Virus record (IMG/VR): IMGVR_UViG_3300037245_003639
DNA length: 64,000 nt
From: a virus
Direction: 5' to 3' (one strand)
The notes beneath the pieces are model-generated. The model saw only the letters and a program-made list of their open reading frames with translations, had not been told where the DNA came from and searched no databases. The translations under genes were made by a program, and so were the position numbers. Position 1 is the stretch's first letter, and each line of letters opens with the position of its first letter. Below, one piece after another: positions 10,525 to 61,814 of this stretch.

Positions 10525-10528
10525 TTTT

Positions 10529-11948: not shown

Positions 11949-11966
11949 GTCTCATATCTCCAGATT

Positions 11967-12030: not shown

Positions 12031-12121
12031 GACGATGGGCTCATATTTGTCACAATCACATTTCCAGATCCAATGTTGAGCATTCATATAGTTCTCGCCA
12101 ACGAGTACAATCCAAGATGAC

Positions 12122-21674: not shown

Positions 21675-21705
21675 TTTTTATCAAAACCCGTGTCGAAGTG
21701 TCAAA
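21675..21705 (-). promoter_or_regulatory. Candidate sigma70-like promoter upstream of the giant gene: TTGACA-N17-ATAAAA with TG
   Basis: The minus-strand sequence TTGACACTTCGACACGGGTTTTGATAAAAAT lies about 100 nt upstream of ATG 21583. Confidence 0.3.
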
Positions 21706-45157: not shown

Positions 45158-47008
45158 CTATCTCTTAATGAGCAACTTCTGAGGATCTGTTGTCCAATTG
45201 CTAATAGCTGAACCTAATGAATCTAAAATTCTCCACCGAATGAAGTAAGTCTCTGTTCTAGTTAAATAATTGGCTTCAGGAGCCTGAAATCTAATACGTC
45301 GTCCACTAAAACTTGAAGAAAGTCCTTCACTGATAATTTGAACAAATCTATTGGTTTCTTGTTCGAATTTCCAACCTGTGTTGTCCGTGAAACTTGAACT
45401 ATCGACCGCCAAAACGGTGAATGCATTATTAGCTGCCACCTGTAATTCGAAGAAGACGTTTTCGTATCTCTGTCTAGGATGAATATAAGTAAACTCATAC
45501 TGCCAGCTTCCCTCTTCATAAATCAAAGATGTGGCAATTGAGGCAGTCGGTATCCCAGCGGTAATTAGATCGTTCAGGAACTCTGTTGTCTTTTCATTAT
45601 GAGCTTCTAGCCAATCAGCAAATTCCAAACCGGTAGTCAGGGGAATATAACGGATAAGTGCTTGCACCGCAGACGTAAACAGGCTATATTGTGACTGGTC
45701 ACTCCTGAGTGTTCTCCACTGATTAATGGGATAAAGAAGATCTATCTCTTCCCAGACTTCCTGTTGTAGATAAGCAAAGTCCAAAAGATTGCCTGCCAGT
45801 CGGGATTGACGCATCGCATAACCCACCGCTTCTTCGATGGCTTCCTTGGCTAAACGAATACCTTCGTCATTAGAAATTAACGAGTAACTCGGGTCATCTT
45901 CGTTTGGAATATCTACGGGGAAGTTAACAACCATCAGTGGGTCACCGATGAGAATTATCTTCCAATCGACGACAGGAGAAGCATATAAAAAGGCTTCACC
46001 AATGGACGCTCCCTGATGCAAAGCTGCAAAGAAAACTCTTGGTCGCAGATAGTTGGCTTCTCCAGGAGCATCTACTGCTCCAGCGCAACATGCGTAACCA
46101 GGTTCAGCATGAATAGCGACATTACACCATGGGTCACTTCCCTGGGAACTAAGTTCTTCAGTTATCGCTGATGCAGCATCCTCATCTGCGTTGTAGAGAA
46201 AGACTCGTCTCTGATTTTGATTCAGAAATAGACCGGTGGTATATCGTGGTGTAAACCATCCCCAGTAAAAAGAATCATATCTGAAATACCCCACCAGAGG
46301 ATCACTGCCATCTATAGGAAGAACGGTAATTTGGGGTTCCAACCCGAGGTCAGTAAGCCCATTGTTCACAAAATAAAGGATGTCATCACGGTAATCTTCT
46401 TGATCAGATGTAGCTTGCAGACCGTAGGGATCGAGATATACTTGTCCCGAAACAAAATGTTGATTATCGACATCGATAGCTCGGTCGATTAGTGTTAAAG
46501 CATCATCCTTGGTTGGGCCGTTGATAACAGCCGTCATATATAATCCGATTGAGTCTTCCTCGTCGAAATATTTGAAGACCTGCCTATCATAGAGATAGTT
46601 GGCAAATTGGTCTTCTTCTGTGAAGCCGAGACGATGCAAACGACTGGCTACTGCTTTGGTTGCTCCTGAGTAATAGGGGTCATATGGATCTTCTTCCAAA
46701 TAAGCCACAGGAACATTGTAACCAAGGATAATTACCCAAATCTCTCTTGCTCCACTGGAAGATAAATTGTCATCCAGGACAGCAATGGCAGTTGCCAGAG
46801 GTTGTTCAATGGTTGAGATGTAATCTGCGTAAGATATAATCTCATCGGATGCACAAGGAAGTGCAATTAAATTAGAAGCAGGTATGCCTCGAAGACTGCG
46901 GTAGTATTGGGCGACTTCCAGAGAATCTGCGTCACCCTGCCGGTAGGCAAAAACCACTCGGTCGGGCGTAACATTGTGTTGTACAGGAACATATTCAGTT
47001 ACTGGCAT
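45158..47008 (-). CDS. Hypothetical protein (616 aa)
   Basis: ORF. Confidence 0.5.
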   Translation of the reverse strand: MPVTEYVPVQHNVTPDRVVFAYRQGDADSLEVAQYYRSLRGIPASNLIALPCASDEIISYADYISTIEQPLATAIAVLDDNLSSSGAREIWVIILGYNVPVAYLEEDPYDPYYSGATKAVASRLHRLGFTEEDQFANYLYDRQVFKYFDEEDSIGLYMTAVINGPTKDDALTLIDRAIDVDNQHFVSGQVYLDPYGLQATSDQEDYRDDILYFVNNGLTDLGLEPQITVLPIDGSDPLVGYFRYDSFYWGWFTPRYTTGLFLNQNQRRVFLYNADEDAASAITEELSSQGSDPWCNVAIHAEPGYACCAGAVDAPGEANYLRPRVFFAALHQGASIGEAFLYASPVVDWKIILIGDPLMVVNFPVDIPNEDDPSYSLISNDEGIRLAKEAIEEAVGYAMRQSRLAGNLLDFAYLQQEVWEEIDLLYPINQWRTLRSDQSQYSLFTSAVQALIRYIPLTTGLEFADWLEAHNEKTTEFLNDLITAGIPTASIATSLIYEEGSWQYEFTYIHPRQRYENVFFELQVAANNAFTVLAVDSSSFTDNTGWKFEQETNRFVQIISEGLSSSFSGRRIRFQAPEANYLTRTETYFIRWRILDSLGSAISNWTTDPQKLLIKR

Positions 47009-47011: not shown

Positions 47012-50000
47012 TTATCGCCTCGGGGGCTGCCGCCAAAGCTCGTCTAATTCCTCCGCAGGAGGAATAGCTACATCTTCTTCATATCCTTGTCGGCGGAGGC
47101 GTTCCTCCGTAGTTCCGGGATCATACACTCCTCCTTCGAACATCGCTTCAAGTTCTTCAGGGGAAACATCGCCTTCATCAGGTTCGCTGGGTTGCAATCC
47201 GGCAAATTCTCCAGGCCCCTCCTCCTCGAATGGATCGAAATTTTGGGTGTTAATTACATGCTGCCTGACCACAGATTTAGCCGCGGATCTCAAATCTCCG
47301 GTTTCATCGAACAGGAATGATAAATCATGAACTGCATTTTTCATCCATTCTGCGAAAATGTTACGGTTGTTTTCGTTTTGTTCCCAACCTCCGTTTTCTG
47401 TTTCAAATTCAGGCCCTCGTAACTCTGGGCTTTCTCTTCGCATTACTTCGAAGAACTTATCCAGACTGGTATGTAACATAAGAGCTTGGGAACCTGTTAG
47501 CGGAGTTTCCGCGTCGGGAGCGGCACGTTCGGCTCCAAGGCTGTGTTTTTCAGTAGCGTATTGTCTGGCCATATCTTCAAATCCAGGGGGCATTTTATCT
47601 CTTGCGATCTCAGCCCATAGATTAAAGATCTCTTCATCGCTATGCGTTCCTGCTGGTCTTAACTCATTGAAATACGCATCCAAAGTTGTCTGCCATATCG
47701 GAGAGTTACTACGAGGGTCTATGCCCTCCCATTCAGTGGCCTCTTTATAGAATGCTCGTTTTACCCAATTGTCCATAGTTTGCTTCCTCGATGCGTAACG
47801 CAGGTCTTCCCCGCCTAAGTCGATTTCGTACCAATTGCGGTTATACGCTTTCGCTGAACTAGCGCCATATTGTTGCGCAGTGCGATTATATATTCGTTCA
47901 AAAAGTTGTTTCTTTTCAGGGCCTCCAAATTCAGCCCAAATCTTCATAAGCTCATCTGCTGTAATAATTCGGACTTTCTCAAACCCTCTCCCCTTTGCCT
48001 CTCGGATAGCCACATTAAAAAACAATGGAATCCAATCTTTGAAGCGATTTTCCAGTTTGGACCGCCAATCATGCCATTTACCAGGATCTTTGCTTGTGTA
48101 CAGGTCCGTGTCGGTCTGAACACCCGATTCCATTTTGTTACGGGCATCTCGAAGTTGCTCCTCTAAACCCTCAAGTTCCATCGCGCTCTTAGACCGTCGT
48201 ATGGAATCATCAGCCCCTTCGGGCATCTGAGATAACTGTCCCTGAAGCTTTTCCAGCAGAACCTGGTTTTTCTGGAACTGAGTATCTTGCGGCTGGCCCA
48301 TTCTGGACATATATGTAAGTTGTTCTTGTTCCTTGTTTATAGCATCAATTTTTTGTTGGAGTTTGTCTCTAGGGCTGACTATCGGTTCTTCCATTTTCGA
48401 TCGGATTCTGTGAACCCGATCTTGAAGACGAGCAACCTCACCTTCCCAAAATTTAGTTACTTTCTTGGGATCTCGCATATAAGGAGTGCGTTGCATAATA
48501 TCACTCTGCACTTCTGTGATATACATCACTTTCTCACTATAATCGGCATAACCCCCAATCCAACCCAATGGGGGCACACCTTCCGTCTTCTGAACAGTGT
48601 GGAAAGGCAATTCGGTCATTAACTCACGCGGAATGCGGTCTTGTTCCTTTTCATTTGTCTCTCTCCCCTGAATCATTTCAGATCCAGGTGAAACAGAAAT
48701 CTGGAACGGCTCCAAGAAATCAGGCATCCCTCCGTGTCCCGAGCCAGGATAAGAACCACGCTGAAGACTATATTGATGTGGAAATGGTCTTTGAGATATC
48801 CCAAGTTCTTTCAGTTTTTGCAATTCCTCTGGAGAAAGTTGTTCCGCTCCCGGATTAAGCATATGATGATATTTCTCTTGTTCCGCTGCTTGTTGTTGTT
48901 GCTGCTGTAGGTAGAGTTGCCTGGCTTGTTCTTGACGTTCTGCATCTTGTTCTCGTTGAAGCATAACAGCCTGAATAGCATCATTGGCTCGAATGGATTC
49001 GGGAATAACCACATCACTTTTACCAATGGCTTCTTCAACCCCTCGTAATACTGCCCGAGGATCTGGGGCCAAACGGTTTATTTCGTTTGAGAACAACTGT
49101 TTCAAAGTATCATTGGAACTAATGATATCTTTAATGCCCTGGGTATACATGGACGTTGTGCCAACCACCTTGTATACACTGGATGCTATGCTCCCAGCTT
49201 CTTCCATCGCATTTAGAGCCGAAAGGATTTTAGATATGCTCATGTCTTTGCGTTCATCGTCTTCCTCTTCAGGCATGATATCGCGGTAATATTCATCTTT
49301 GAATAATTCGTAGGGATCGAATCCTAATCGATGATTCATTTCCCTGGCATGTTCCTTAGAATATTCAGTATCACTGTCGGATATACTTTGCTCCGCGTTC
49401 TCTTTGAGATCTGCTCCATGATACTCCGTGTACCAATCAGATACTGTGCTATCACGGTCAAAGGTATCATCAGCTTTGTCCCTCAACTGTGCATCATCAA
49501 CCCACTCGACATCTCCTGGTATCTCTTTTCGATCCCAAGAATTCATTTCATTATTCGACCAGATTTCTGAGAATAGTTCCGCAGTGAATTTAGCCATTGT
49601 TTCATAGAACTCTTCCATCGGCCTGACATTATCAGGGTCTTCCGCAGCCGTTTGGTAAGCTGCTTGAATGTCCGCAACTGATATATCTAACGGGATGCCC
49701 TGATTGGTAAAAGCTTGTTCATACTCTGTCATTTTCTCCCATAACCCTTGAAGTGCTTCGGGAGCGGGAAGATCGCGCTTACCTAATGTTTCTTCGTAGT
49801 AGTCTTTTAAAAGTTGTGGAAGGTTCGTGTCGTCATCAATGTATTTGAGAAAACTTTCCCATTGGTCTTCTTTAAGGCGAGTGAAGTCCAAATCAGCCAC
49901 GTACATATCAGCGTATGTGCCTATCTCATCTTTTACTCGTTCTTCATCTGGCTCATAATCAGGTCGAGGATAGTTGGTATAGTATGTGTCGTATACAGGA

Positions 50001-50299
50001 ATTCCCTGTTCATTTTTGATTATCTGTCTATTCTCGTCATATCGATATTGTCTCTGAGATTCTTGTTCTATTTCGATATCTTCATACAGAGTCTCAAAAA
50101 TGGTATGAAAATATTCCAAAGCAGTTGTCACTACATCTTTGAATTGGGCCGCACTACGCATTTGACGCAAATCAGCTACCCCCGGTCCTTCAAACAGATA
50201 GCCCTGACCTAACTGTTCAGGTGGTATCTCCAGGATTTGCTGTAAGCCATTGACTGATAATGGCACTATATGTTGTGAGAATTTGATAAGCCAGTTCAT
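47012..50299 (-). CDS. Large protein of about 1095 aa, paralog A of the 59025..61814 gene
   Basis: The corrected start is MNWLIKFSQ, preceded by GAGGCTATCC-ATG. The ORF-track TTG extension is removed. Shared blocks with paralog B are GWIGGYADYS..YITEVQSDIMQRTPYMRD and WHDWRSKLENRFKDWIPLFFNVAIREAK. Confidence 0.6.
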   Translation of the reverse strand: MNWLIKFSQHIVPLSVNGLQQILEIPPEQLGQGYLFEGPGVADLRQMRSAAQFKDVVTTALEYFHTIFETLYEDIEIEQESQRQYRYDENRQIIKNEQGIPVYDTYYTNYPRPDYEPDEERVKDEIGTYADMYVADLDFTRLKEDQWESFLKYIDDDTNLPQLLKDYYEETLGKRDLPAPEALQGLWEKMTEYEQAFTNQGIPLDISVADIQAAYQTAAEDPDNVRPMEEFYETMAKFTAELFSEIWSNNEMNSWDRKEIPGDVEWVDDAQLRDKADDTFDRDSTVSDWYTEYHGADLKENAEQSISDSDTEYSKEHAREMNHRLGFDPYELFKDEYYRDIMPEEEDDERKDMSISKILSALNAMEEAGSIASSVYKVVGTTSMYTQGIKDIISSNDTLKQLFSNEINRLAPDPRAVLRGVEEAIGKSDVVIPESIRANDAIQAVMLQREQDAERQEQARQLYLQQQQQQAAEQEKYHHMLNPGAEQLSPEELQKLKELGISQRPFPHQYSLQRGSYPGSGHGGMPDFLEPFQISVSPGSEMIQGRETNEKEQDRIPRELMTELPFHTVQKTEGVPPLGWIGGYADYSEKVMYITEVQSDIMQRTPYMRDPKKVTKFWEGEVARLQDRVHRIRSKMEEPIVSPRDKLQQKIDAINKEQEQLTYMSRMGQPQDTQFQKNQVLLEKLQGQLSQMPEGADDSIRRSKSAMELEGLEEQLRDARNKMESGVQTDTDLYTSKDPGKWHDWRSKLENRFKDWIPLFFNVAIREAKGRGFEKVRIITADELMKIWAEFGGPEKKQLFERIYNRTAQQYGASSAKAYNRNWYEIDLGGEDLRYASRKQTMDNWVKRAFYKEATEWEGIDPRSNSPIWQTTLDAYFNELRPAGTHSDEEIFNLWAEIARDKMPPGFEDMARQYATEKHSLGAERAAPDAETPLTGSQALMLHTSLDKFFEVMRRESPELRGPEFETENGGWEQNENNRNIFAEWMKNAVHDLSFLFDETGDLRSAAKSVVRQHVINTQNFDPFEEEGPGEFAGLQPSEPDEGDVSPEELEAMFEGGVYDPGTTEERLRRQGYEEDVAIPPAEELDELWRQPPRR

Positions 50300-50327
50300 G
50301 GATAGCCTCAACTATCCTATTTTACAC

Positions 50328-50358
50328 AAAAAAGGCCCCCATTCCTTGCAGAAAGGGG
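50328..50358 (-). terminator. Rho-independent terminator downstream of the RNR gene
   Basis: The minus strand reads GAGTCCCCTTTCTGCAAGGAATGGGGGCC followed by TTTTTT. Confidence 0.5.
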
Positions 50359-50382
50359 ACTCATTTAAGATAGAAACCAGAC

Positions 50383-52635
50383 TTATCCGCAGCGAGAGTG
50401 CAGACAGACAGGACACTTCAGACAAGCCGCATCTGATTGCATCTCCGTCTTCTTGCCCTTCTTAGCACATTTCTCGCAATAACGGTCCTCGGAAACAGCC
50501 AGAATCTCATCCACGGTCAAATAGTGTTTCTTAAGAATCCGTCCAACGGCTTTCGAAAAACTGGTCAATTTGTCGCTGCTCTTATCGATTTGCTGCACAA
50601 TATACTTCGGGAGGATGCCATGACGAAGCTCCAGACTGAAGCGCCGAGTCTCCAAGCCCAATCTGGGGTCAATTTCTTCTTCAACTATGTTTAGATTATC
50701 AATCAGAATCTCACCAGATTCGTCCAGAAGCGAGTAATGTCTTTTTTTCCTCTTCATTACCTGGCCTTGTGACGGCAGATTTTCGTAACCACCATTAACA
50801 GCAAAAATTTCATAAGGCTGGTTGTTCTCAAGTCCTACGATAATATGCCACTGCATGCCCTCGGCCGTCGTTCTGTAAATATCACAGGCAACAGTTCTGG
50901 GTCGAGGTCGAGAGAGATTAGCTCCATAGTTAGTGTTGGTTTTGTCGTCCGACGTAAGCACTTGAGATGTTTTGCACTCGTCTCGATAAATGGTGATTCC
51001 TTTACAACCTTTTTTCCAAGCCCGAAAATAAGCTTCAGCGATATTTTTCTTAGTCGCATTGTTAGGCATGTTGATTGTTTTGGAGATTCCCGAATCGACG
51101 TTCTTTTGGAATGCTGACTGCATATCTACATGCTGTTTCCAATCAACTTCTCGGGCTCCATCCCGATCTTTGTCTATGGCACATCTGAAATACATTTCAT
51201 CTGCTTGCGGATGCGACATCTTGTAATTACCAGTGTTATCTGAGCGATATGTAGTAGGGGCATAGATGGGTTCAGCCGAACTGGAACATCCTGCTATAAT
51301 GGCAATTGAACCTGTGGGCGCCAGCGAGAGGGTTGTGGCATTGCGACGGTAATCCAATTCTCGATACTTACAAGATTTTGGAGTGCCACGTTCTTCAGCC
51401 AACTCAACCGATTTCTCGTGAGTTACATCTTTGAAGAATTTAGACATCTTTTCCGCATAAACGATAGAAGGTTCTTCTCCATAAGCCATATGCTTCTTCA
51501 ACAATAGATCTGCCCAACCCATGATGCCCAAACCCACGGGGCGGTTGTCCTGAGCCCATTGCTTAAATTCTTCGGTGGGGAATTGATTCTTGTCGATAAC
51601 GTTGTCCAAAAACTGGAAAGATGCGCGAATGTCATCCCTTAGTTCATTCCAATTTACGTCATCAAAATCAGGAATGTAATATTTTGAGACATCGATAGAA
51701 CCTAAATTACACGATCCCCATTGCGGTAGCATTTGTTCTCCGCAGGGGTTTGTGGCCGTAAGCTCTTGTCCACTATGTTTGTAAGGCCCATTGTTAATGG
51801 CGTTGTAGAACAATATTCCTGGGTCACCATTGTTCCAGGAATTTGCTACAATTAGATCAAACACGTCATGAGCTTTGATGCTTTCGTAAACTTCGCCGCC
51901 GAAGCGTAAATCAAAAAGACCATCCTTTTCAACGGCCTGCATAAACTCATCAGTTATTAGAACAGAGATATTGAAATTGGATATAAACTTATCCAACATA
52001 ATGTTTGCATGTTCATGAGTATGACCGTTCAGTTTGTCGAAGTGATTGAAGAAATCTTCTTTGAGTTGGTATTTCAGGGCGAACTCGCGTTGTTTACAGG
52101 TAATGAATGTATGAATGTCAGGATGATCTACCCGCAGCACGCCCATATTAGCCATGCCTCGAAATCCCGCTTGAGTAATCGAATTCATAGCCTCAGATAC
52201 AACAATCATATGACGAACGGGGCCGCACGCTTTATAGTGAGTAGAGCCAAATACTCTATCGCCTGAAGGTCTGATTTGCGAGAAGTCAACTCCGCATCCG
52301 CCCCCACGGCGGGCAATATGCCCAAAGTTGGCTATGTTTTCACACATACCAATCCAACTATCTTCTGGGCTTTTGGTTACAAAACACGCCAGCAATCCAC
52401 CAACTGGATTGCCAGCGTTTACAAGACAAGGGGAGTTTGGAAGAAACCTGGTGGAGTAAAGCAGTTTCGAGATTTTCTTTTTGAACTCTTGGGATTCGTG
52501 GCCACAAACTGCCTTCGTTACCCTTTGAACTAACCCATCCCAGTCTTCAATGTTATTGCCATCATCATCCTTACGATAATATCGCGTGGCGGCGACGTTA
52601 CGCGCCGCGGCGTTGAGTGGACACTCTTTTCCCAT
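50383..52635 (-). CDS. nrdJ: Ribonucleotide reductase, class II type (NrdJ-like)
   Basis: The active-site motifs are NPCGEQMLPQWGSCNLGSIDVS and LAPTGSIAIIAGCSSSAEP. The C-terminal Zn ribbon is CEKC...CLKCPVC. The corrected start is MGKECPLN, preceded by GAGGAGA and a 7-nt spacer. Confidence 0.8.
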   Translation of the reverse strand: MGKECPLNAAARNVAATRYYRKDDDGNNIEDWDGLVQRVTKAVCGHESQEFKKKISKLLYSTRFLPNSPCLVNAGNPVGGLLACFVTKSPEDSWIGMCENIANFGHIARRGGGCGVDFSQIRPSGDRVFGSTHYKACGPVRHMIVVSEAMNSITQAGFRGMANMGVLRVDHPDIHTFITCKQREFALKYQLKEDFFNHFDKLNGHTHEHANIMLDKFISNFNISVLITDEFMQAVEKDGLFDLRFGGEVYESIKAHDVFDLIVANSWNNGDPGILFYNAINNGPYKHSGQELTATNPCGEQMLPQWGSCNLGSIDVSKYYIPDFDDVNWNELRDDIRASFQFLDNVIDKNQFPTEEFKQWAQDNRPVGLGIMGWADLLLKKHMAYGEEPSIVYAEKMSKFFKDVTHEKSVELAEERGTPKSCKYRELDYRRNATTLSLAPTGSIAIIAGCSSSAEPIYAPTTYRSDNTGNYKMSHPQADEMYFRCAIDKDRDGAREVDWKQHVDMQSAFQKNVDSGISKTINMPNNATKKNIAEAYFRAWKKGCKGITIYRDECKTSQVLTSDDKTNTNYGANLSRPRPRTVACDIYRTTAEGMQWHIIVGLENNQPYEIFAVNGGYENLPSQGQVMKRKKRHYSLLDESGEILIDNLNIVEEEIDPRLGLETRRFSLELRHGILPKYIVQQIDKSSDKLTSFSKAVGRILKKHYLTVDEILAVSEDRYCEKCAKKGKKTEMQSDAACLKCPVCLHSRCG

Positions 52636-52732
52636 GCTTACATTCTCCTCAATTCCATATAACGGTGAAGGCAATATTCACAAATTCAATCTCAGTTCCT
52701 TCACCGATTTTCAAAGGGACATAGAGCGTGGA

Positions 52733-53461
52733 CTATACTGCTGGATCGAAGAGACCTTCCTGTTGGGCTTTGTATTTTTCTTTGATTTCGACACGTTTTT
52801 GTTCGCGCTTTCTGGCCTTCCGGGTTTGCTGTTTTGCTTTCTTTAGCTCTTTCTGCGATTTCGGTTTCTTTGCACTGATGTTGGTTGTGCCGGTCGCTTG
52901 TAATCGCTTTCTTGCTTGTCTCTTGGCATGAATTTTGGCTTTACGCTTGTCGTTGCGTTCCTGCATTTTTTCTTGAGTTGATTGAACGGTAGGCAAATCG
53001 ACAAGTAATTTGCCCTCTAAATGGTCGTATTCATGTTGAACGATGACAGCCTCTGTCCAATTCAATTCTAAAGGACCATCGACATCACTCAGGAAAAAAC
53101 CATTTTGATCTTCGGATAATTCGACGATGCGATCCGCATCAATGACAACGCAAGCACACCTTTCAACAGTCCGCATGACGCCTGGAAGAGAAAGACAACC
53201 TTCAGTGGAAGGAGTTGTATTCTCACCCATCTCTTCAAACCTGGGATTTACAAAACCGTATCTGCGGTTCAAAGCAGGCAACCAGGCGATAAAGACCCTT
53301 TGTAATGTGTTTATTTGGGGTGCAGAAAGACCCAACTGTCTGTCAGGCAAGGAGTCGCATAAGTCATGGAGTAAATTGAGAGTTTCTGCTGATTTGGGAT
53401 CAACTGGTTCTGATTTTTGATGCAGCAACTCTCGGTCAGTAATGATAGTTCGCTTAGCCAT
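52733..53461 (-). CDS. def: Peptide deformylase with a long Lys/Arg-rich C-terminal extension
   Basis: The three PDF motifs are GLSAPQI, EGCLSLPG and QHEYDHLEG. The basic tail is about 80 aa long. Confidence 0.85.
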   Translation of the reverse strand: MAKRTIITDRELLHQKSEPVDPKSAETLNLLHDLCDSLPDRQLGLSAPQINTLQRVFIAWLPALNRRYGFVNPRFEEMGENTTPSTEGCLSLPGVMRTVERCACVVIDADRIVELSEDQNGFFLSDVDGPLELNWTEAVIVQHEYDHLEGKLLVDLPTVQSTQEKMQERNDKRKAKIHAKRQARKRLQATGTTNISAKKPKSQKELKKAKQQTRKARKREQKRVEIKEKYKAQQEGLFDPAV

Positions 53462-53477
53462 AGTAGTCCTCTTAGAC

Positions 53478-53492
53478 TACATTATACAACGA
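53478..53492 (-). promoter_or_regulatory. -10 like box TTGTATAATG upstream of the PDF gene
   Basis: The minus strand reads TCGTTGTATAATGTAGTCTAAGAGGACTACTA-ATG. Confidence 0.45.
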
Positions 53493-53738
53493 CTAAGCTT
53501 TGCGAAAGACGTTTATAGGATTGATCGCCCACAGGAATTTGTTGGACTTTGCTTGCGACTTCGCGTCCATTGCAACAATCTTTTTCTTATCGACCTGAAT
53601 CCTGCGATAAGTGTTAAAGATGATAACCAACAATTCACCGAGCGTCGCGGCGGCTCCAGCCAATATGACTTTGTGAGACGCTAAATATTCTATGAGTTCA
53701 CTTAGCATGGCCCCCTCCAAAAAAGAAACCAGCCCCAC
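53493..53738 (-). CDS. Small membrane protein of 81 aa with one TM helix. It is holin-like, but this is speculative.
   Basis: VILAGAAATLGELLVIIF is a hydrophobic helix. The C-terminus is basic. Confidence 0.4.
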   Translation of the reverse strand: MGLVSFLEGAMLSELIEYLASHKVILAGAAATLGELLVIIFNTYRRIQVDKKKIVAMDAKSQAKSNKFLWAINPINVFRKA

Positions 53739-53760
53739 AGTAGCGAGGCTGGCTCTTTGG

Positions 53761-54444
53761 TTAGTCCTCTAATTCTACGTTCCAGTATAGTTCGTCGTTC
53801 TGGACTTTCAAGAACTGAGCCCAGGACTTCGGGAACCGTTGGAAACGTCGAATAGAATAAATCGGGCTCCAGCATGGAGCTTTCGGACGTTCGTAGTATT
53901 TCGGTCGCAGGTGACCGTTTTTCTCGATCATCTGACGCAGAGTCATGCCTGCTTGCTCCGGGGTTCGGTTATCCTTGTGCTTGTTGCAACTGACACAAGC
54001 CAAAACGCAGTTCTCGAAGCAGGTCACGCTTTTGTCGTGCTGCTGTCGATTCCAGATCGCCTTCGGGACAACGTGGTCCACAGAGATCTCATCATGTCGT
54101 GGACGCTTACCACAATACTGGCAGCGGAAACGGTCCCGCTTCCATAGGTTGCGGCGAGAGAATACCACAGTACGACGAGGCACTTTGTCGTAGTGATTGA
54201 CTACGACTTCGGGAACCAGAATACGCTGACGAGCCGCTTGGATGAAACGACCGTCTCCGACTTCTTGCTCCATCCATCCTTCCATGTCATGGAGCGTAAA
54301 CGACTGCGGATGGACCACTCGCGCTTTTTCAGCCATTACGTCTGTAATGGCCTCACGCGCAGTTGTCGCATCAATTGCGAACCATCCCTTGTTCAAAACA
54401 AGGACTGGGCTATCCAGGGCTGTCGTTTCTAAAGTCGCTACCAT
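53761..54444 (-). CDS. HNH endonuclease
   Basis: CQYCGKRPRHDEISVDHVVPKAIWN...NCVLACVSCNKHKDNRT fits the HNH pattern C..C..H.....DH..P.....N...C..CN..K. Confidence 0.75.
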   Translation of the reverse strand: MVATLETTALDSPVLVLNKGWFAIDATTAREAITDVMAEKARVVHPQSFTLHDMEGWMEQEVGDGRFIQAARQRILVPEVVVNHYDKVPRRTVVFSRRNLWKRDRFRCQYCGKRPRHDEISVDHVVPKAIWNRQQHDKSVTCFENCVLACVSCNKHKDNRTPEQAGMTLRQMIEKNGHLRPKYYERPKAPCWSPIYSIRRFQRFPKSWAQFLKVQNDELYWNVELED

Positions 54445-54453
54445 AACATCACC

Positions 54454-54642
54454 TCACTCATACAACTCCATTTTTTTCTTACGTCCCTTGCCAACACATT
54501 TAGCTTGGAGCCGCTTTTGATGCGCCTCCCGGGCCTTTACGTCCTCGATAGTGGGGGAGAAATGCGAAAAATGCAGTCTCATCCACGCTTCGGAGGGAGC
54601 TTTAGCCATATTATAATGGATTAGTGCTTCTGTCAACCTCAT
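54454..54642 (-). CDS. Small basic protein (62 aa)
   Basis: The ORF overlaps the DHH gene stop by 4 nt. Confidence 0.4.
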   Translation of the reverse strand: MRLTEALIHYNMAKAPSEAWMRLHFSHFSPTIEDVKAREAHQKRLQAKCVGKGRKKKMELYE

Positions 54643-55763
54643 TTTTCAGTTATTTTCTGGAATTTCCGCTCGATATTCGTCTTTACCAAGTCCCAGAGGC
54701 CCGACATCTCGTCGGCTGGCATCGATGATACGTCAAAAACGTTGATCTGGACCTTGGCCCCTCCGATACCATGTTTGGCTCCACCGTTACCCTGACCGAA
54801 GAGTTCGTCCAAAAGATTCTGAGCATCCAGAGTTGAACTTGAAGTTCGCACACTTCCTCGCACAGCACCTTCCACAATAGCATATACCACAACTGTCTGA
54901 ATGCCCTGCAATCTCATGAACTTATCTGCCAAATAAGGAATACAATCGCTCTTGGAATCTTCCAAGAACCCTAAACCCGCAATCAAACTTGGGGGTTGAT
55001 AACTTTTGTTCTCCCAGGCGGTACGTTCCGCATCAAACACGTAAGGTGATAGTTCATAATTGACGATTTTATGGAATTTTTCGTCACTAAAATGACGGCT
55101 CAAAACTTTGTATGCCTGAAAATCATCATCTGTCGTGTTTTCTGTCAAAAAGTCCAGTGTGTCTGTTTTGATACCAACTGCTAAAGATGTGGCAATCTCT
55201 CTCATGTTGTCTGCATCAGGATCGAAACACTGAATTTGCTCATCCTCCACTTGTATGCAAAGCGAAAGCATCAGATCAACAATCAGGGTCGCACATGCTC
55301 CAATTTCATCATGAATCGAGAGGACGCCTCTGGCCGGGACATTTTTGTGATGATCCACCACAATATCAGGATCAAATGGAATGCTCATGTTATTTTGGCC
55401 GCCAACACAATCTACGAAAACAACAACTGGTTTCTCTTTGGCGTTGATGAACTCATTCTCGATGGTTTTTGTCCAAGGGTTGATCGGAATCTTCAAGACG
55501 GTTTTCATCGCTCGATTTTGTGGGTGAGAGATTTCTCCGCAGTAATACATTTTGATCGATTCTGCGCCCAAGAACGATAGAATATGGAACATTCCATACG
55601 CAGAAGCCAGTGAATCAGGATCGGGATTATCATGCGAACAAACTATAAACTGTCTATGTCGTTGCTCTTCAATAAATTTGCAAAAGGCATCTTTCTTGGC
55701 TTTGACCTTTTTGTTGCCAATTGGGGCGATTAGATTTTTGTGTTCTTTATTACTATCGGACAT
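54639..55763 (-). CDS. DHH-DHHA1 family phosphoesterase, NrnA or RecJ-core like
   Basis: Motifs present: VCSHDNPDPDSLASA (DHH motif I), VFVDCVGG, VVDHHKN (DHH), and Gly-rich GNGGAKHGIGGAK (DHHA1 GGGH-like). Confidence 0.7.
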   Translation of the reverse strand: MSDSNKEHKNLIAPIGNKKVKAKKDAFCKFIEEQRHRQFIVCSHDNPDPDSLASAYGMFHILSFLGAESIKMYYCGEISHPQNRAMKTVLKIPINPWTKTIENEFINAKEKPVVVFVDCVGGQNNMSIPFDPDIVVDHHKNVPARGVLSIHDEIGACATLIVDLMLSLCIQVEDEQIQCFDPDADNMREIATSLAVGIKTDTLDFLTENTTDDDFQAYKVLSRHFSDEKFHKIVNYELSPYVFDAERTAWENKSYQPPSLIAGLGFLEDSKSDCIPYLADKFMRLQGIQTVVVYAIVEGAVRGSVRTSSSTLDAQNLLDELFGQGNGGAKHGIGGAKVQINVFDVSSMPADEMSGLWDLVKTNIERKFQKITEK

Positions 55764-55772
55764 GACTGCTTT

Positions 55773-56201
55773 CTAGATGTTGCGGATGGCTTTGCGGGCG
55801 ATATCCATATGAGTCGAGAGATATTCGTTCACTATTGTACAACAAGTCTCCTCGATAATTTCAAAATCGCGTAAATCAAGTCCTTCCGAACTCTGAAGTC
55901 TTTTTCTTTGGGCGTCAATTAAATCAGATAGTTTGGTTTCATCCACGATAGCGCTAACCACCTGAAGCCAAGTTTCCCCATTGTCAAACGCAGCGTTGAT
56001 TTCGTCGTCGGAGGCTTCACCGAATAAATCAGCCAAACATTCGACATAACCGGTCTGGCACCCATCTTGTTGCTCCATGTCCAAACCAACGAGTTTTTTG
56101 GTTTCCCATTTGACTAAACTGGAGAATATCGTGACAATGAAATCATCTGTCAATGATGGTTCAAGTATATACACTGCCATATCAGTATTTTCCTTGGACA
56201 A
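55773..56201 (-). CDS. Hypothetical acidic protein (142 aa) within the RNA-repair operon
   Basis: The ORF is tightly packed between the HD-Pnk and DHH genes. Confidence 0.5.
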   Translation of the reverse strand: MSKENTDMAVYILEPSLTDDFIVTIFSSLVKWETKKLVGLDMEQQDGCQTGYVECLADLFGEASDDEINAAFDNGETWLQVVSAIVDETKLSDLIDAQRKRLQSSEGLDLRDFEIIEETCCTIVNEYLSTHMDIARKAIRNI

Positions 56202-57269
56202 TTATACATAGATGACCTCGTGGGCCTCGGTTAGATCAGGGACTTCCCATTTATTCAATAGCTTGTTGATAACGGTTTCGGGGACTGCATTTTTTCGGGC
56301 TTTGTTTTGCTTCCATAGGTTATCGTGATCGGTTTCAACATAGACTATACAGATACGGGCTCCGTACTGCCGAAGCAACGTGAGACATTTATTACGAACC
56401 ATTTTGCTTACGTTAGTAGCATTCCAAACAAAATCCCGCCTGGCACCCAATAGACGTTTCGCTTCATCCTTGGCCTGCCGGATGACCTTTGACTGATTAT
56501 CCGCAGGTCGGACTCGCAGACTCTCTCTGATTGCGTCAAGAGAAACAACTGGTAGACCATCACAGTTGGCATGGATATAATGGCTTTTCCCTGAGCCCGG
56601 TAATCCTGACATAACTATCACTGTCGGTCTAAGCGGCGGACGAGCTTGGCTGCGGATATCTTGGCCCAGGTTGAAATGAGCAACCCGGGCATGATCAGAA
56701 GCAAATGGGTAAGAAGCTCCCCAGCAACCAATCTCCTGACAGAATTTCCGGAATATATGAACTTTCTCAACACTTTCGCCCCCATCAGATAGACAATGCC
56801 GACCTTCCGCATCCGCCTCAGCCAATATAGCCAGCAAGTCAGTTCTGACGGACAAACTGATTTGTGCCACGTAACTTTCCATGTCAGATGCATCCAACAG
56901 ATGCAAAGGGCGCATATGATATTTGACCAGATTGCAAACATCTTCGCGGGCTCTGAAGTCGGCTCCGGCTTCCCAAAGAATGCGACGAGCCTTTATAGTC
57001 CCTTTGAGAGCATGGTTTTTGCTGGTAATGCGCCCATCAACAACATCGAATACGTCAGGCTTGGCACAGTCATGCAAGATTGCTGCCGTTAGGAGAATAT
57101 CCTGAATCTCATTTGGTTGTGCCTGATAAGCGCGGAGTCCACGTAGAGCCGAGCATACTAACTGCGTATGAACCCAAACATCGCCTTCTCCGTGATATTC
57201 GGGACTTTGCTCACATTGACGCATCGCATCAACCCAGGGAGCATCCAGATTATTCGGGTCGAGCAACAT
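56202..57269 (-). CDS. HD-Pnk: an N-terminal HD phosphohydrolase fused to a C-terminal P-loop polynucleotide kinase
   Basis: The HD motifs are HGEGDVWVH, ILHDCAKP, KYHMRP and EADAEGRH. The Walker A motif is VMSGLPGSGKSH. Confidence 0.75.
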   Translation of the reverse strand: MLLDPNNLDAPWVDAMRQCEQSPEYHGEGDVWVHTQLVCSALRGLRAYQAQPNEIQDILLTAAILHDCAKPDVFDVVDGRITSKNHALKGTIKARRILWEAGADFRAREDVCNLVKYHMRPLHLLDASDMESYVAQISLSVRTDLLAILAEADAEGRHCLSDGGESVEKVHIFRKFCQEIGCWGASYPFASDHARVAHFNLGQDIRSQARPPLRPTVIVMSGLPGSGKSHYIHANCDGLPVVSLDAIRESLRVRPADNQSKVIRQAKDEAKRLLGARRDFVWNATNVSKMVRNKCLTLLRQYGARICIVYVETDHDNLWKQNKARKNAVPETVINKLLNKWEVPDLTEAHEVIYV

Positions 57270-57978
57270 TACATTTGCATCCTTCGTTTATCTGGGTCTC
57301 GATACGTCTAATCTGCGAAGTCCAACAATCGATAGCCAAATAGCCACTTAGCGCATCAGCCTCGACTAACAGTTTGATTACTTCGATGGCTTGCATGCTA
57401 CCGACCATGCCAACCGCTGCTCCTAATACTCCTCGCTCAACATCTGGAGTACCGCAGACGCTGGCCTCAAATATGCACCACAAACAAGCTGTCTGGCCCG
57501 GGACAATAGCCCAGACTCTTCCTTCTGTTTCTGTCACTCCGCCGTAAACCCAGGGTTTGCGGAGTTTGATGGCCCAATCGTTGATGATAAAACGACTATC
57601 CATATTGTCTGTGCAATCGGCAATTACATCTGCATCCGCCAGCAACTCCTCTGCGTTGCCATCTGTCAGTCGTTTAGATTCCAATCGCAGCCGAATCGTT
57701 GGGTTAATTCTTAATAAACGAACTCCTGCTCGTTCAACTTTGAATTTACCCACGTCAACGCTGTCGTAAAGAACTTGACGAGGCAAATTGCTTGATGCAA
57801 CTCGGTCATCGTCAATGAGTGTTACGTTGACGCCTGAGCGAACCAAAGACGAGCTAACTACGCAGCCCATTCCTCCGCAACCAACGATGGCTACTCGTTT
57901 TTCACGCAGTTTAGTATGACGCTTCGCTCCCAGAAGAGCTATTTGCCGATTGTATCGGTCATCGGTTATGCGGCCCAT
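57250..57978 (-). CDS. E1-like adenylyltransferase of the ThiF/MoeB family
   Basis: Motifs present: RYNRQI, VAIVGCGGMGC, DDDRVASSNLPRQ, DCTDNMDSRF, plus the Zn motif CLWC...GCKC. The RBS is AGGAG with an 8-nt spacer. Confidence 0.75.
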   Translation of the reverse strand: MGRITDDRYNRQIALLGAKRHTKLREKRVAIVGCGGMGCVVSSSLVRSGVNVTLIDDDRVASSNLPRQVLYDSVDVGKFKVERAGVRLLRINPTIRLRLESKRLTDGNAEELLADADVIADCTDNMDSRFIINDWAIKLRKPWVYGGVTETEGRVWAIVPGQTACLWCIFEASVCGTPDVERGVLGAAVGMVGSMQAIEVIKLLVEADALSGYLAIDCWTSQIRRIETQINEGCKCNVARPE

Positions 57979-58754
57979 ATATCAACTCCTGGAGCCAGTT
58001 GATTTTCTACAATTGGTCGTTCCATCCAATGAGAGCCCGAATCAAGCAACTGCTGTACGAAACTGTGTCGCACAAACTTTAGTCGCTCACTGACAACTCC
58101 GTCTTCTTCCACTTTGATATATAGGCCCTCGGAGAGCCTGCTCATATCCGTCTCTGCTTTCGTGGCGTCAAACTCATGTTTGGCAGCTTCGGCTGCAAGT
58201 TCCAGGGCTAATTCCCAATCCTCACTTTTGTACAGAGAAGTTCCTACCAGCGAAAGCAGATGATCATAATCTTCGGCGGTTCCTGACCACAAAACAGGCA
58301 CGGAGATCACTGGCAATTTCTCCAGCATCGCATAACGCCGTGGAGTATCCAAAAAGACTTCTGTTTCTTTGTCGAAAATATCGAACTCCATGAAGAGATG
58401 CGGGAGCATGTCATAAAACTCGGTATGCTTAGCCTGCATCCATTCGCCGTACATAATATAGCGATTACCTAGCACCTTCCAGAAACTGTCTGCATGGCAT
58501 GGAGCCCAAGCTTTCAGCCTCGTGAAGTGGCGCTCGCGTGGACCTCCCCGCAACGCATGGCCTCGACTTTGAAGCAACAAATCACCTTTGCCATGAAAAC
58601 TGACAGCGCAATTGGCCCCGTCGAGTTTCTCTTCCACGACGATATGACGACCCTTCAAATCCACGAACGGAACCTGTGTCAGGTCTTCATCGCCTTGTTG
58701 AAGACGAGAACCTTTCAAGTGACGAGTCCTGGGATATTTGTAGAAGTCTTTCAT
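57966..58754 (-). CDS. ATP-dependent RNA ligase, Rnl2-like nucleotidyltransferase
   Basis: The N-terminal KYPRTRHL is followed by motif I EEKLDGAN (KxDGxN). The likely true start is MKDFYKYPRTRHL. The ORF-track start at 58781 is a GTG. Confidence 0.65.
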   Translation of the reverse strand: MKDFYKYPRTRHLKGSRLQQGDEDLTQVPFVDLKGRHIVVEEKLDGANCAVSFHGKGDLLLQSRGHALRGGPRERHFTRLKAWAPCHADSFWKVLGNRYIMYGEWMQAKHTEFYDMLPHLFMEFDIFDKETEVFLDTPRRYAMLEKLPVISVPVLWSGTAEDYDHLLSLVGTSLYKSEDWELALELAAEAAKHEFDATKAETDMSRLSEGLYIKVEEDGVVSERLKFVRHSFVQQLLDSGSHWMERPIVENQLAPGVDIWAA

Positions 58755-59024
58755 AATTTCATCAACCCTATAGCGTAACACTGCGGAGCCAATTTGTCAA
58801 GGTTTTTTGGCAGAACAAAAATAACGGCAACTGCCGCCAGGGTATAAAACTCAAAATTATATGGTCTTTCCTGGAATGATGACAAAAAAAGTCACCATCC
58901 GCCTCTCCAGTATTGGAATTAGACGATTTCAATGCAAGGATTTTCCTCTCACGGGCCGTAAATAAGATAACAGGACAATATCCATATAATGGTGTAAATA
59001 TTTTTCGGACTATAAGGCACAAAT

Positions 59025-61814
59025 ATGAACTGGTTATTTCGCTTCAAAAAACTGGCTCAACAAACCATTCCACTTAACATGAAGAGTCTGATGGAACTCG
59101 GTGAGAGTCCATATGCCGAGACTGCTGCTAGTCTTCTACGCATGTTTGATAAGATGTTTACCCAAATTCCTCAGCTTCTCACAAACGAACCAATACTCAC
59201 AGACGTTGATGCCAGCAATCTCGGTAACGAAATATTCATTGCAGTAAAAGAAAATGATGATCTTCAGTTCGACGATTGGGATGATACATGGAATTTTATT
59301 ACGACTGTTGAGAGTGAAAGAGAACATCTTAGATCTAAATCAGAACTAAGGACAAGTTTCCATATTGATGGCTTAACCTATTCAGAAGAACCAGGCGCTT
59401 ATGGACCGATGATTAACGGAATTGCACTTCGCCAGGCAGATCCTGCTACACTTAGCGAGTTTGTTAACAAAATAAGAAAACTTGGCGAATATATCGAAGA
59501 AGCTAAAGATATGGTTGCAGGCGAACCCGAAGAGGCAGGTGGAGACTGGAACTCAGAAATGATGGTGGGCAGTGGCTGGTGGGAAGGCAAAGAAGTCAGA
59601 CAGTTCTACGACCAGTATAAAGCTGGTCTAGAACAAATACAACTTGTTATTCAGCAAAATCCCGGCTGGCAAAATAATTTCAATGAGTTGGTGGATAGCG
59701 TCACTGAATTGTCTATTACCTTCCTGTCTTTAATGCGAAAAAGCGAAACAGGGGAAACTGTCCCTCCGCCACAACTTCCCTGGATTGATGCCGAATTATT
59801 CAAAAGAAGCATCAAGGCAAATAACATCAACAAATCCACCGAATGGTTTATGAACAAAAATCCTGAATTCAAAGCAGGACTTCTAGCAGATGCTCAACGG
59901 CGGCACAGAGATGCTCAAGTTGCTGCATTGGAAGATAGCAAAATCCAATTTGATCATGCCCACGGCATGGCAGACACCCCTGTAGGAGAGACTAGCTGGT
60001 TGAATGCCCTGAGGATGCCATTCAATGGTCTTGATGAAGGTGATCCTCGTCTTTCATTGGACGCTAAAACTCTTTCCACTATGTCTGGTCGTATAGCCGC
60101 ATTACAAGTGCGGGGAGCAAACGAGACAAGTCAAGTCATTGCACTCTACGTTGTTGCCATTCAAATGAAAGCCATGAGTGATCCCAACCTTACTGACGCA
60201 TTCGGTAATAGTTTGGAATACGCTCCTGACAGAGATCGAGCGCGAGCAGGAGCCATGGCAGCGGAAGGAACCTACACATTACCTGAAGTTTTCCAAGGCA
60301 GGAGTGTTCGAGAAATCAGCGGATCGATTGAAACGCACTTCAGTGAAATGAGAGATTTCTTCGAGAATATCAAACGAATTGTCAAAACCCGAAATTACGA
60401 ATATTCAGAAGCAGAAGCTGTTCGCCTAAGAGAACTGGGGATTTTGAGCAAACCGATGCCGGGTATAAAATATCGAGTCCAGGAAGAACGTTTTCCAGGC
60501 ATGGGTTATCTGGAGGGTGAAGAAGTTGGTCGCGTTGGAACTAACTTCCAAATTGCTATCGCTCCTACTGCGGAATACTTGCAACAGAAAGGTTTACCCG
60601 AGAAAATCTTCTCCAAATATGACGCCCGCGACAGCCAAAAAGGTATGCACCTGCACGGATCTGCTCGCGACATAGATGGATTAGCTCCTATCGGATGGGT
60701 CGGTGGTTGGGTTGATCCTGAAACCAGGGAAATGTTCGTATTCGAAACTCAAAGTGACATAATGCAGCGCTCCGGGTTCATGAGAGATTCAGTTAAACTT
60801 GAGGACGAACGAAAAGCCAGGGCATTCCAATTAGAAGCAGACATGACTGCCGTGCAACAACAGATTACGGATCTGCAAACAGGAGCCACTCAACCTAAGA
60901 AGAAAAAAGGTCCAAAAGACGCTATCCGGGCCAATATCCGACGCATCAGAGCAGATATAGAACAGGCTAAGGCCGATTTAGATCAATTATCTCAGCAAAA
61001 TCAAGCAATGGAACAGCAGGCAGACTTCGATCCTAACCACCCAGGTTACTTGCATAATAAACAAGTCATAGACACCAAACTAAAAGCAATCTCCAAATTT
61101 ACTCAACAACTCCAGAGGATGGAGGAAAACCTGGCTCGCATTCCCGATCCTGTCGAGCCCGAACTCGCGCCCGAGATTCAGCAGCCCGAGGGACAGCCCG
61201 TTGCACCTGAAGGACAACCTGTTGCACCTGAAGGACAACCTGTTGCACCTGAAGGACAACCAGTCCCTGAGTTGCCGCAACAACTTCAACAGAAAATAAA
61301 TAAACTGCAAAACAAACTACAGAATCTGGAAGTGGAGTTGATTGAATCTAAAAAGCCAGTTCAACCACTTACGGGTTCATACGTTTGGCCACATTGGCAC
61401 GACTATCGTTCTAAGTTAGAGACGGCTTTCAAAGACTGGATTCCGATCTTCTGGAATACAGCCGTTAGAGAAGCCAAGCAGATGGGTATTGTCAGTCTCT
61501 ATATCGTCCACTCAGACGAACTTATGAAGATATGGGCGGGCGTTCTTAGAGGCAAAACCGCTGAAGAAAAAGAACTTGTCAGAGGTTTGTACAAAAGGGT
61601 CTACGATAAAATTGCAGAGGGCTATGGTGCAACAGAAGTCAATTATAGGGGCAGAAAATTCTTCCGAATTGACATCAACGATCCAAACCTGCGATTTGCG
61701 TCTAATTGGTTTATGAGAGCCCCTTACGACTCTCCGTATGCCCGTCTGGTCAAAATCAACTGGCCTAAATCACACGGGTTACCCAACACAACAGGATTGG
61801 TTCGTAGATCCTAA
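59025..61814 (+). CDS. Large protein of 929 aa, paralog B. It is the only plus-strand gene and carries a (PEGQPVA)n repeat.
   Basis: It shares N-terminus MNWLFRF with paralog A, along with GWVGGWVDPETREMFVFETQSDIMQRSGFMRD and WHDYRSKLETAFKDWIPIFWNTAVREAK. Confidence 0.6.
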   Translation: MNWLFRFKKLAQQTIPLNMKSLMELGESPYAETAASLLRMFDKMFTQIPQLLTNEPILTDVDASNLGNEIFIAVKENDDLQFDDWDDTWNFITTVESEREHLRSKSELRTSFHIDGLTYSEEPGAYGPMINGIALRQADPATLSEFVNKIRKLGEYIEEAKDMVAGEPEEAGGDWNSEMMVGSGWWEGKEVRQFYDQYKAGLEQIQLVIQQNPGWQNNFNELVDSVTELSITFLSLMRKSETGETVPPPQLPWIDAELFKRSIKANNINKSTEWFMNKNPEFKAGLLADAQRRHRDAQVAALEDSKIQFDHAHGMADTPVGETSWLNALRMPFNGLDEGDPRLSLDAKTLSTMSGRIAALQVRGANETSQVIALYVVAIQMKAMSDPNLTDAFGNSLEYAPDRDRARAGAMAAEGTYTLPEVFQGRSVREISGSIETHFSEMRDFFENIKRIVKTRNYEYSEAEAVRLRELGILSKPMPGIKYRVQEERFPGMGYLEGEEVGRVGTNFQIAIAPTAEYLQQKGLPEKIFSKYDARDSQKGMHLHGSARDIDGLAPIGWVGGWVDPETREMFVFETQSDIMQRSGFMRDSVKLEDERKARAFQLEADMTAVQQQITDLQTGATQPKKKKGPKDAIRANIRRIRADIEQAKADLDQLSQQNQAMEQQADFDPNHPGYLHNKQVIDTKLKAISKFTQQLQRMEENLARIPDPVEPELAPEIQQPEGQPVAPEGQPVAPEGQPVAPEGQPVPELPQQLQQKINKLQNKLQNLEVELIESKKPVQPLTGSYVWPHWHDYRSKLETAFKDWIPIFWNTAVREAKQMGIVSLYIVHSDELMKIWAGVLRGKTAEEKELVRGLYKRVYDKIAEGYGATEVNYRGRKFFRIDINDPNLRFASNWFMRAPYDSPYARLVKINWPKSHGLPNTTGLVRRS
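61188..61270. repeat. 21-bp in-frame tandem repeat, about 3.5 copies, encoding PEGQPVA
   Basis: The sequence cctgaaggacaacctgttgca is directly repeated. Confidence 0.6.

Follow-up and report, generated by a model that had tools for sequence, protein, structure and literature searches.

What are the products of two long, oppositely transcribed and similar genes in the genome of an uncultivated virus, and what might they do during infection? Both genes lie in a 64,000-nt stretch of IMG/VR virus record IMGVR_UViG_3300037245_003639 (hereafter "the window", meaning the whole stretch that was analysed). Gene A, the A-type paralogue, occupies 47012..50299 on the minus strand and encodes 1095 amino acids (aa); gene B, the B-type paralogue, occupies 59025..61814 on the plus strand, divergent from an RNA-ligase operon, and encodes 929 aa. 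Comparison of their sequences indicates that A and B are true full-length paralogues, and structure prediction allows us to say with confidence that they share a core with a predicted GNAT fold, split by a coiled-coil insert. The family to which they belong is real, rare and previously unannotated, and is so far confined to uncultivated viruses and metagenomes. Our best reading is that its members are divergent GNAT-fold phage effectors or virion-associated proteins, for which we infer both catalysis and a virion location; we give a probability of roughly 0.45 to the proposal that A and B are GNAT-fold enzymes or effectors of acyl or aminoacyl transfer that act together and may be packaged.

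The open reading frame (ORF) called mechanically for gene A spans 47012-50311 (minus strand) and opens at a TTG at 50311, with an internal ATG at 50299 that has a GAGG resembling a ribosome-binding site six bases to its 5' side. Translation from this ATG gives A the N-terminus MNWLIKF; B begins MNWLFRF, and approximately 20 distant homologues begin alike. Because the ATG at 50299 has the GAGG and yields the MNWL start common to homologues, we assign gene A to 47012-50299. An earlier note, made from the sequence alone, had given the same coordinates and lengths for both genes, and these are right. Its description of B as the only plus-strand gene is accurate for long ORFs, of which B is the sole example on that strand; a few short plus-strand ORFs of 75-143 aa (at 175-402, 3927-5143, 11202-11979 and 38133-38381) may be genes. 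Its word "giant" is generous for either protein, since ORFs of 1820 and 1238 aa are also present in the window. A protein identical to A (P0001) is encoded on a 403-kb JGI contig, and the source of A and B is an uncultivated phage of roughly 400 kb.

The similarity between the two proteins extends well beyond shared motifs. BLASTP aligns residues 489-851 of A with residues 461-901 of B at 30% identity over 453 columns (E 3e-43), and all of the motifs that had been noticed by inspection are found: MNWL, GW(I/V)GG, E(V/T)QSDIMQR, MRD, WHD(W/Y)RSKLE, FKDWIP, A(I/V)REAK and the Y.R at the end of the core. In a six-frame translation of the window, MNW[LIVF] is confined to A and B. For profile-profile comparison we built profile A6 from A-type orthologues and profile A7 from B-type orthologues; hhalign aligned A 1-805 with B 1-882, i.e., the whole of B (E 2.3e-82), and aligned the N-terminal domains alone (A 1-480 with B 1-455) over 359 columns with a probability of 99.3% (E 1.8e-20). 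Because the profiles align across the whole length of B, and because the N-terminal domains align by themselves, we regard A and B as paralogues over their full length, with homology that takes in the N-terminal domains (~450 aa) as well as the blocks described in the earlier note. The sole Pfam and PDB sequence matches of A and B are coiled-coil families, and one could imagine that the likeness is a by-product of coiled-coil or low-complexity composition in two unrelated ORFs. That explanation is practically certain to be wrong: the conserved blocks fall outside the coiled coil, a profile from which the insert was deleted recovers the family with E-values down to 1e-73, the N-terminal domains align without any help from the insert, and orthologues of both types are present on other contigs. 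The similarity is thus not limited to low-complexity segments, and its BLASTP E-value lies far past chance.

The family is sparsely represented in sequence collections. Scans of A and B with Pfam, PHROG, NCBIfam and PADLOC gave nothing, or coiled-coil noise (FlxA, SbcC-like, ASRP and similar), and tblastn of both proteins against 50,697 deposited phage genomes gave no match. A word-indexed search of 5.8 billion proteins returned only P0001, P0002 and P0003, with one relative each for A and B, and a profile search of the word-indexed set returned just five proteins; the name "predicted nuclease with TOPRIM domain" that JGI attaches to one of these five is most likely a coiled-coil artefact and was disregarded. 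An exhaustive hidden Markov model search of 1.84 billion cluster representatives identified 113 relatives at E<=1e-3, 36 of them at E<=1e-30, and scans guided by the motifs located family members on 12 viral contigs of IMG/VR and on 39 contigs from metagenomes, several of which come from groundwater, with Hainich among the sources. A scan for the family motif across 185,579 species genomes of bacteria and archaea revealed no relative, and a scan of IMG/VR for close relatives of B found nothing; all relatives whose source was seen are on viral or metagenomic contigs. Many members are 900-1100 aa long and start MNW(L/F)xK..K.AQ, and in A-type proteins the start peptide is followed by PLS(I/V)xGL and PGQGYLFxGPE.

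Protein A can be divided into six segments, all encoded on the minus strand. Residues 1-12 (50264..50299) form a conserved N-terminal peptide, MNWLxK..(A)Q, that is found in approximately 20 members and is disordered in the AlphaFold2 (AF2) model, with a predicted local confidence (pLDDT) of 39 for residues 1-10. Residues 13-483 (48851..50263) form a mostly alpha-helical N-terminal domain with one beta hairpin. The first half of the GNAT-like core (residues 484-610; 48470..48850) contains PFPH, LH, GWIGG and ExQSDxxQRT, and the second half (residues 739-840; 47780..48085) contains WHDWRSKLENRFKDW, FFN, REA, RIY and YAS; between them lies a coiled-coil insert of four long helices (residues 611-738; 48086..48469), modelled at 611-637, 643-666, 673-691 and 696-724. 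A helical C-terminal extension (residues 841-1095; 47015..47779) ends, in the A6 consensus, in a P.A.EL..WW-like tail; this extension of ~255 aa, with its conserved tail, is confined to A-type proteins and has no counterpart in B. Protein B, encoded on the plus strand, begins with the N-terminal peptide MNWLFRFKKLAQ and a helical N-terminal domain (residues 1-460; 59025..60404), which was delimited with hhalign against the A-type N-terminal domain. The first half of its core (residues 461-590; 60405..60794) contains GWVGG, ETQSDIMQR and MRD, and the second half (residues 789-900; 61389..61724) contains WHDYRSKLETAFKDW, FWN, REA, RVYD and FAS, with a longer coiled-coil insert (residues 591-788; 60795..61388), to which Pfam and PDB give coiled-coil matches only, between them. 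Within the B insert, TRF detects a 21-nt tandem repeat at 61191-61261 (plus strand; 3.4 copies, 96% matches) that encodes PEGQPVA repeats, and this is likely a site of length variation.

The two halves of the core are contiguous, with no insert, in relatives P0062, P0063, P0066, P0067, P0068 and P0073. Because both blocks are contiguous in several relatives, we consider the core to be one compact domain of ~200 aa with an insertion, whose length varies from 40 to 200 aa across the family (~130 aa in A and ~200 aa in B). In alignments A4 and A5, which include 31-32 diverse members, a Pro and a His before the first strands are near-invariant, as are the GW.GG that follows them, the E.QSD..Q.T at and right after a strand, the KSK.EN, W and F.N of the helices after the insert, and the A of REA; the Tyr of R.Y(D/N) is invariant. 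In the numbering of A, G583, E596, Q598, D600, Q603, W756 and Y804 are invariant across 31 diverse sequences, and among 132 distinct domain sequences Y804 is kept in 96% and W756 in 91%.

The earlier note had remarked that a C-terminal block looks like an acetyltransferase fold, and had proposed structure prediction as a check. AF2 models the A core, from a 32-sequence alignment, with confidence as a GNAT-like fold (mean pLDDT 90.4; predicted TM-score, pTM, 0.78), and the core is unchanged in a full-length model of A from 34 sequences (pLDDT 80.6, pTM 0.60), in which residues 50-480 of the N-terminal domain are confident and mostly helical, the C-terminal extension has moderate to low confidence, and both residues 1-10 and the C-terminal tail are disordered. 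The GNAT core has the topology beta1-alpha1-alpha2-beta2-beta3-beta4-alpha3-beta5-alpha4-beta6(-beta7). Elements in the core model follow the order strand-strand-helix-strand-strand-(insert)-helix-strand-helix-strand-strand, and the A core, as modelled, has the GNAT core fold. GNAT-fold structures listed for the core include 3lod (a putative acyl-coenzyme A (CoA) N-acyltransferase), Rv0802c (2vzy), FdhC (5kta), 8osp, 1y9k and the tandem GNAT 2wpw, together with Elp3 (5l7j), NatD (NatD/Naa40), Gcn5, RimJ, PseH, the AHL synthase TofI, FemA and ornithine decarboxylase antizyme (4zgy_B). The full-length model has its top structural match in antizyme, which shares the fold and is non-catalytic. No specific structural relative was found for the N-terminal domain or the C-terminal extension of A, and a Foldseek search of BFVD gave weak matches only (TM about 0.12), to uncharacterised large phage proteins.

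At the level of sequence profiles, A and B stand apart from the GNAT superfamily. GNAT profiles (Pfam Acetyltransf_1/7/10 and others), NCBIfam and PHROG gave no match for A, B or 34 relatives, and the core profile compared with PDB sequences gave coiled-coil matches only when the insert was included and nothing when it was left out. In L028, the family member P0011 is followed by a small canonical GNAT gene (4610-5008, with a weak Acetyltransf_7 match) and then by tail-tube genes; hhalign of the core profile against this small GNAT gave a probability of 0.2%, which is not significant. A and B differ further from known GNATs in having ExQSDxxQ(R/N)T in place of motif A, a coiled coil of 40-200 aa between beta4 and alpha3, and a core that lies within proteins of 900-1100 aa with a novel helical N-terminal domain of ~450 aa. 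Given the lack of any profile match, the missing motif A and the top match to antizyme, we file the core as GNAT-fold, and not as an established acetyl-CoA-dependent acetyltransferase. Mapped by element order, the insert follows the beta4-like strand, whose end is ExQSD, and precedes the alpha3-like helix, which carries FFN.A.REA. The segment IREAKxxG, which the earlier note had put forward as a possible acyl-CoA-binding motif, falls instead at the end of the alpha3-equivalent helix before beta5. Many GNATs carry a general base at the end of beta4 and a general acid Tyr in alpha4, and the R.Y(D/N)..A..YG segment of the core resembles classical GNAT motif B. As judged from element order in the model, the beta4-like strand of A and B closes with an invariant acidic residue (E596 in A) and their alpha4-like helix carries an invariant Tyr (Y804 in A), which are plausible candidates for the base and the acid.

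Genes around relatives and domains fused to them provide further clues, and are suggestive as regards the proposal of the earlier note that the pair may be virion components or injected enzymes. Family members adjoin genes for the major head protein (L009), portal (L010), protease (L005), tail tube (L028) and TerL (the window, L002, L004 and L025). Homing-endonuclease-like genes with matches to Mom-like DNA-modification and HNH PHROGs (L009, 1829-3403 and 6346-7809; L010, 5766-7304) lie on either side of the major head protein and family member genes in these two unrelated viral contigs; the family member itself contains no Mom-like domain. The core also occurs in proteins of diverse architecture: P0062 has HDAC, core and HAD phosphatase; P0063 has 2H phosphoesterase, LRV repeats and core; and the core is joined elsewhere to InPase, to pentapeptide repeats, and lies within a 3122-aa protein of L012. 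P0067, in L029, is a lone opposite-strand gene, like B, amid replication and 7-deazaguanine DNA-modification genes.

These architectures recall the polyvalent proteins of phages and conjugative elements (Iyer et al. 2017, PMC5512222). The likeness lies in the relatives that carry the core with HDAC, HAD phosphatase, 2H phosphoesterase, InPase, LRV and pentapeptide modules, in the frequent location of family genes near head genes, and in one weak BFVD match that is annotated with a large polyvalent-protein-associated domain. Polyvalent proteins have at least two effector or catalytic domains; P0062, P0063 and the 3122-aa protein of L012 share this multi-domain character, and in A and B only the GNAT-like core is recognisable. 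A second comparison, with the head-internal proteins Alt and IPI-III of T4-type phages, is purely a lead. Those proteins carry an N-terminal capsid-targeting sequence. The A/B family similarly has a short, conserved, unstructured N-terminal peptide on large, divergent proteins encoded near head genes; it has no sequence similarity to Alt or IPI-III, and no protease-site consensus was identified in it.

The pairing of an A-type with a B-type gene recurs outside the window. On contig SDBT01004703.1 of GCA_004196315.1, a B-type gene (P0006, 920 aa) is divergent from RNA ligase, and onward from there lie AAA_33, DHH, HNH, deformylase and ribonucleotide reductase (RNR) genes, an A-type gene (P0007, 1031 aa), a 616-aa gene, a 138-aa gene and TerL. 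The presence of both copies in a related genome, which had been proposed as a check, is thus borne out, and the description of A and B as ancient, divergent duplicated proteins agrees with the retention of both in the same layout in this second genome. The ThiF gene of the window is absent from this otherwise syntenic contig. An orthologue of B (P0003, 38% identity) is in the same position and orientation on a Logan contig (L001). On the A side, the order of A, a 616-aa gene of the uncharacterised TIGR03790 family, a 139-aa gene and TerL recurs in L002, L004 and L025; in L002 and L004 the TIGR03790 gene downstream encodes 615-622 aa and TerL follows. Copy number is greater at some loci, with two members in tandem in L005 and three in L063.

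In the closest relative of the window, IMG/VR 3300035158_000510 (L002), both paralogues are damaged. Its A-type gene has an in-frame TGA (12284-12286) at the conserved Trp of FKDW, which divides the product into 761 and 329 aa. We considered recoding of TGA and rejected it, because all other genes of the contig read normally in code 11; the TGA is a nonsense variant, a sequencing error or a site of local readthrough. The B-type gene has a frameshift, followed by an IS200/605 TnpB after approximately codon 196. TnpB genes sit within the B-type gene in L015 (after approximately codon 196 of B; 75-1235 and 1341-1918, both minus strand) and approximately 300 nt downstream of B-type genes in L026 (13058-14281) and L027 (8337-9560). 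The occurrence of IS200/605-type TnpB in or near the B-type genes of L015, L026 and L027 suggests that insertion recurs at a hotspot in this locus. The RNR large subunit of L002 (6511-9915), at 1134 aa, contains an intein with a LAGLIDADG endonuclease.

We propose that the core would catalyse acyl or aminoacyl transfer, or would at least bind such a donor. In this model, E596 of ExQSD, at the end of the beta4-like strand, would serve as the general base and Y804, in the alpha4-like helix, as the general acid, while the QSDxxQ(R/N)T turn would hold the donor in place of motif A. Oligomerisation or target binding would fall to the coiled-coil insert and the N-terminal domain, and A and B probably act jointly, with the inserts perhaps joining them into a heteromer. 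They would probably modify a macromolecule during infection, most likely a protein of the host or of the phage, and they may travel packaged in the head and enter the cell with the DNA, as do polyvalent-protein effectors. A more specific version of this proposal is unlikely: in it, A and B would each supply one subunit of a heteromeric acyl- or aminoacyl-transferase of huge environmental phages, which is virion-delivered or made very early, binds its donor in a new way, through ExQSDxxQ and a coiled-coil arm that replace the GNAT P-loop, and modifies a host macromolecule so as to take over the cell. Were this true, the GNAT fold would gain an enzyme class, and phages an effector type, that are both new.

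Several observations weigh against joint catalysis and packaging. GNAT motif A, Q/R-x-x-G-x-G/A, sits in the beta4-alpha3 loop and binds the CoA pyrophosphate. In alignments A4 and A5 this motif is absent, with ExQSDxxQ(R/N)T at its position and no Gly-x-Gly/Ala, and in most members the insert follows directly, occupying the place where the CoA pyrophosphate would bind. B lies in an early-looking RNA-repair region outside the structural module, and neither A nor B has a recognised polyvalent-protein marker domain (no MuF, portal-fusion or LPD Pfam domain). Most loci have one copy of the family within 10 kb on either side, and the double damage in L002, which is a single case, fits mutual dependence of the two proteins or their joint dispensability. 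The same absence of motif A, and the insert that fills the cofactor loop, would be expected if A and B were non-catalytic structural or morphogenetic proteins (scaffold, inner-body or ejection proteins, or assembly chaperones) with a GNAT-like fold that serves as a binding module, and with coiled coils and conserved terminal peptides that dock them to the capsid, portal or scaffold. Antizyme, a small eukaryotic regulatory binding protein without catalytic residues, is an example of such a use of the fold. The phage family differs from antizyme (4zgy_B) in its invariant constellation of polar residues and in its architecture, and with a sequence identity of 10% no evolutionary link is implied. 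A structural role would also suit the proximity of members to genes for the major head protein, portal, protease, tail tube and TerL, and the long helical or coiled-coil regions with conserved disordered termini, as docking peptides would have. Nonetheless, the most conserved positions are polar and of catalytic type (E, Q, S, D, Q, T, E, N, Y) and form no hydrophobic interface; they cluster where the beta4-like strand ends and within the alpha3/alpha4-like helices. Moreover, coiled-coil scaffolding proteins are helical and lack catalytic-type residues, whereas here the insert is variable and dispensable, the core is found without a coiled coil inside multidomain, enzyme-rich proteins, and B, like P0067 in L029, is among replication or RNA-repair genes rather than structural ones. 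We regard a purely structural role as possible, if doubtful.

An alternative possibility is that A and B are acyl- or aminoacyltransferases directed at nucleic acid, working with the RNA-repair and tRNA genes in the manner of TmcA, Elp3 or Mu Mom, such that the core modifies tRNA or phage DNA from acyl-CoA or a charged tRNA. A and B bracket genes for RNA ligase, HD/AAA_33, DHH and ThiF proteins, a bracket that is conserved, with a CCA-adding-type nucleotidyltransferase gene nearby; P0067 is among 7-deazaguanine DNA-modification genes, and one relative is fused to a 2H phosphoesterase. Mom of phage Mu is a GNAT-fold enzyme with an atypical insertion that uses glycyl-tRNA instead of acetyl-CoA (PMC13219725), and it therefore provides a precedent for a GNAT without motif A. 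Mom differs from A and B in its size of ~230 aa, A and B being 4-5 times larger, and in its insertion, which is helix-turn-helix-like, ~35 aa long and elsewhere in the fold, as opposed to a coiled coil. In the PHROG scan neither A nor B belongs to the Mom-like PHROG 1384, and no Mom, TmcA or Elp3 profile matches them. Most relatives are away from RNA-repair genes, no family member, and hence no B-type gene, was found at the RNA-ligase loci of other related phages, and the proteins contain no recognisable nucleic-acid-binding domain. We consider a nucleic-acid target quite unlikely, and we continue to favour joint acyl or aminoacyl transfer by A and B, probably on a protein.

Large genes without annotation are numerous in huge phages. 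Whichever role is correct, the analysis converts two such genes into a defined family with a domain map, a predicted fold, candidate catalytic residues and relatives. The family belongs to a known fold class, from which its cofactor loop, coiled-coil insert and overall architecture set it apart, and its two paralogues have a conserved arrangement. Another divergent GNAT in a huge phage would not be astonishing; the missing motif A, the position of the insert and the retained pair are the testable oddities. If the core is active, the GNAT fold would take in a form in which a coiled-coil arm is present and the classical CoA loop is missing, and the core would join Mom as an example of phage repurposing of this fold. 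If it is a non-catalytic docking module, it is still a useful annotation for a recurrent neighbour of head-module genes. The conserved pairing of A and B and their conserved terminal peptides offer direct entry points for experimental work on whether a heteromer forms, on targeting to the capsid and on takeover of the host.

The surrounding genes identify the window as phage DNA, since they include TerL (42759-44669), portal (27240-29675) and protease-like (21701-23116) genes. Among deposited sequences, the TerL of the window comes closest to those of an uncultured 485-kb phage and of the Microcystis Ma-LMM01 group, at an identity of only 27%. Directly downstream of A is the 616-aa TIGR03790-family gene (45158-47008, minus strand; NCBIfam E 4e-28), and the tRNA nucleotidyltransferase-like (CCA-adding-type) protein is encoded at 38813-39643 (minus strand). 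Between A and B are genes for the RNR large subunit (50383-52674; 763 aa, without an intein), peptide deformylase (52733-53461, minus strand), an HNH endonuclease, a DHH phosphoesterase, an HD/AAA_33 kinase-like protein, a ThiF-family E1-like enzyme (57250-57978, minus strand) and RNA ligase.

Sigma-70 promoter and terminator scans around A and B gave counts no higher than the shuffled expectation. The stretch from the RNR stop codon to the start of A includes, at 50327-50360 (minus strand), a GC-rich hairpin (CCCCTTTC-TGCAAG-GAATGGGG; one mismatch) and, after it, a run of T residues; the hairpin was spotted by eye only and was not called by the terminator scan. The hairpin and T-run resemble an intrinsic terminator, and A may therefore begin its own transcription unit. 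In the divergent spacer between B and RNA ligase, a near-consensus sigma-70-like promoter (TTGTCA, 18 nt, TATAAT; 11/12 matches) at 58856-58885 (minus strand) points toward RNA ligase. Lastly, positions 1-14000 of the window have a lower G+C content (0.40-0.42, versus 0.44-0.52 elsewhere) and many short ORFs, and this first 14 kb may be a different functional or evolutionary module.

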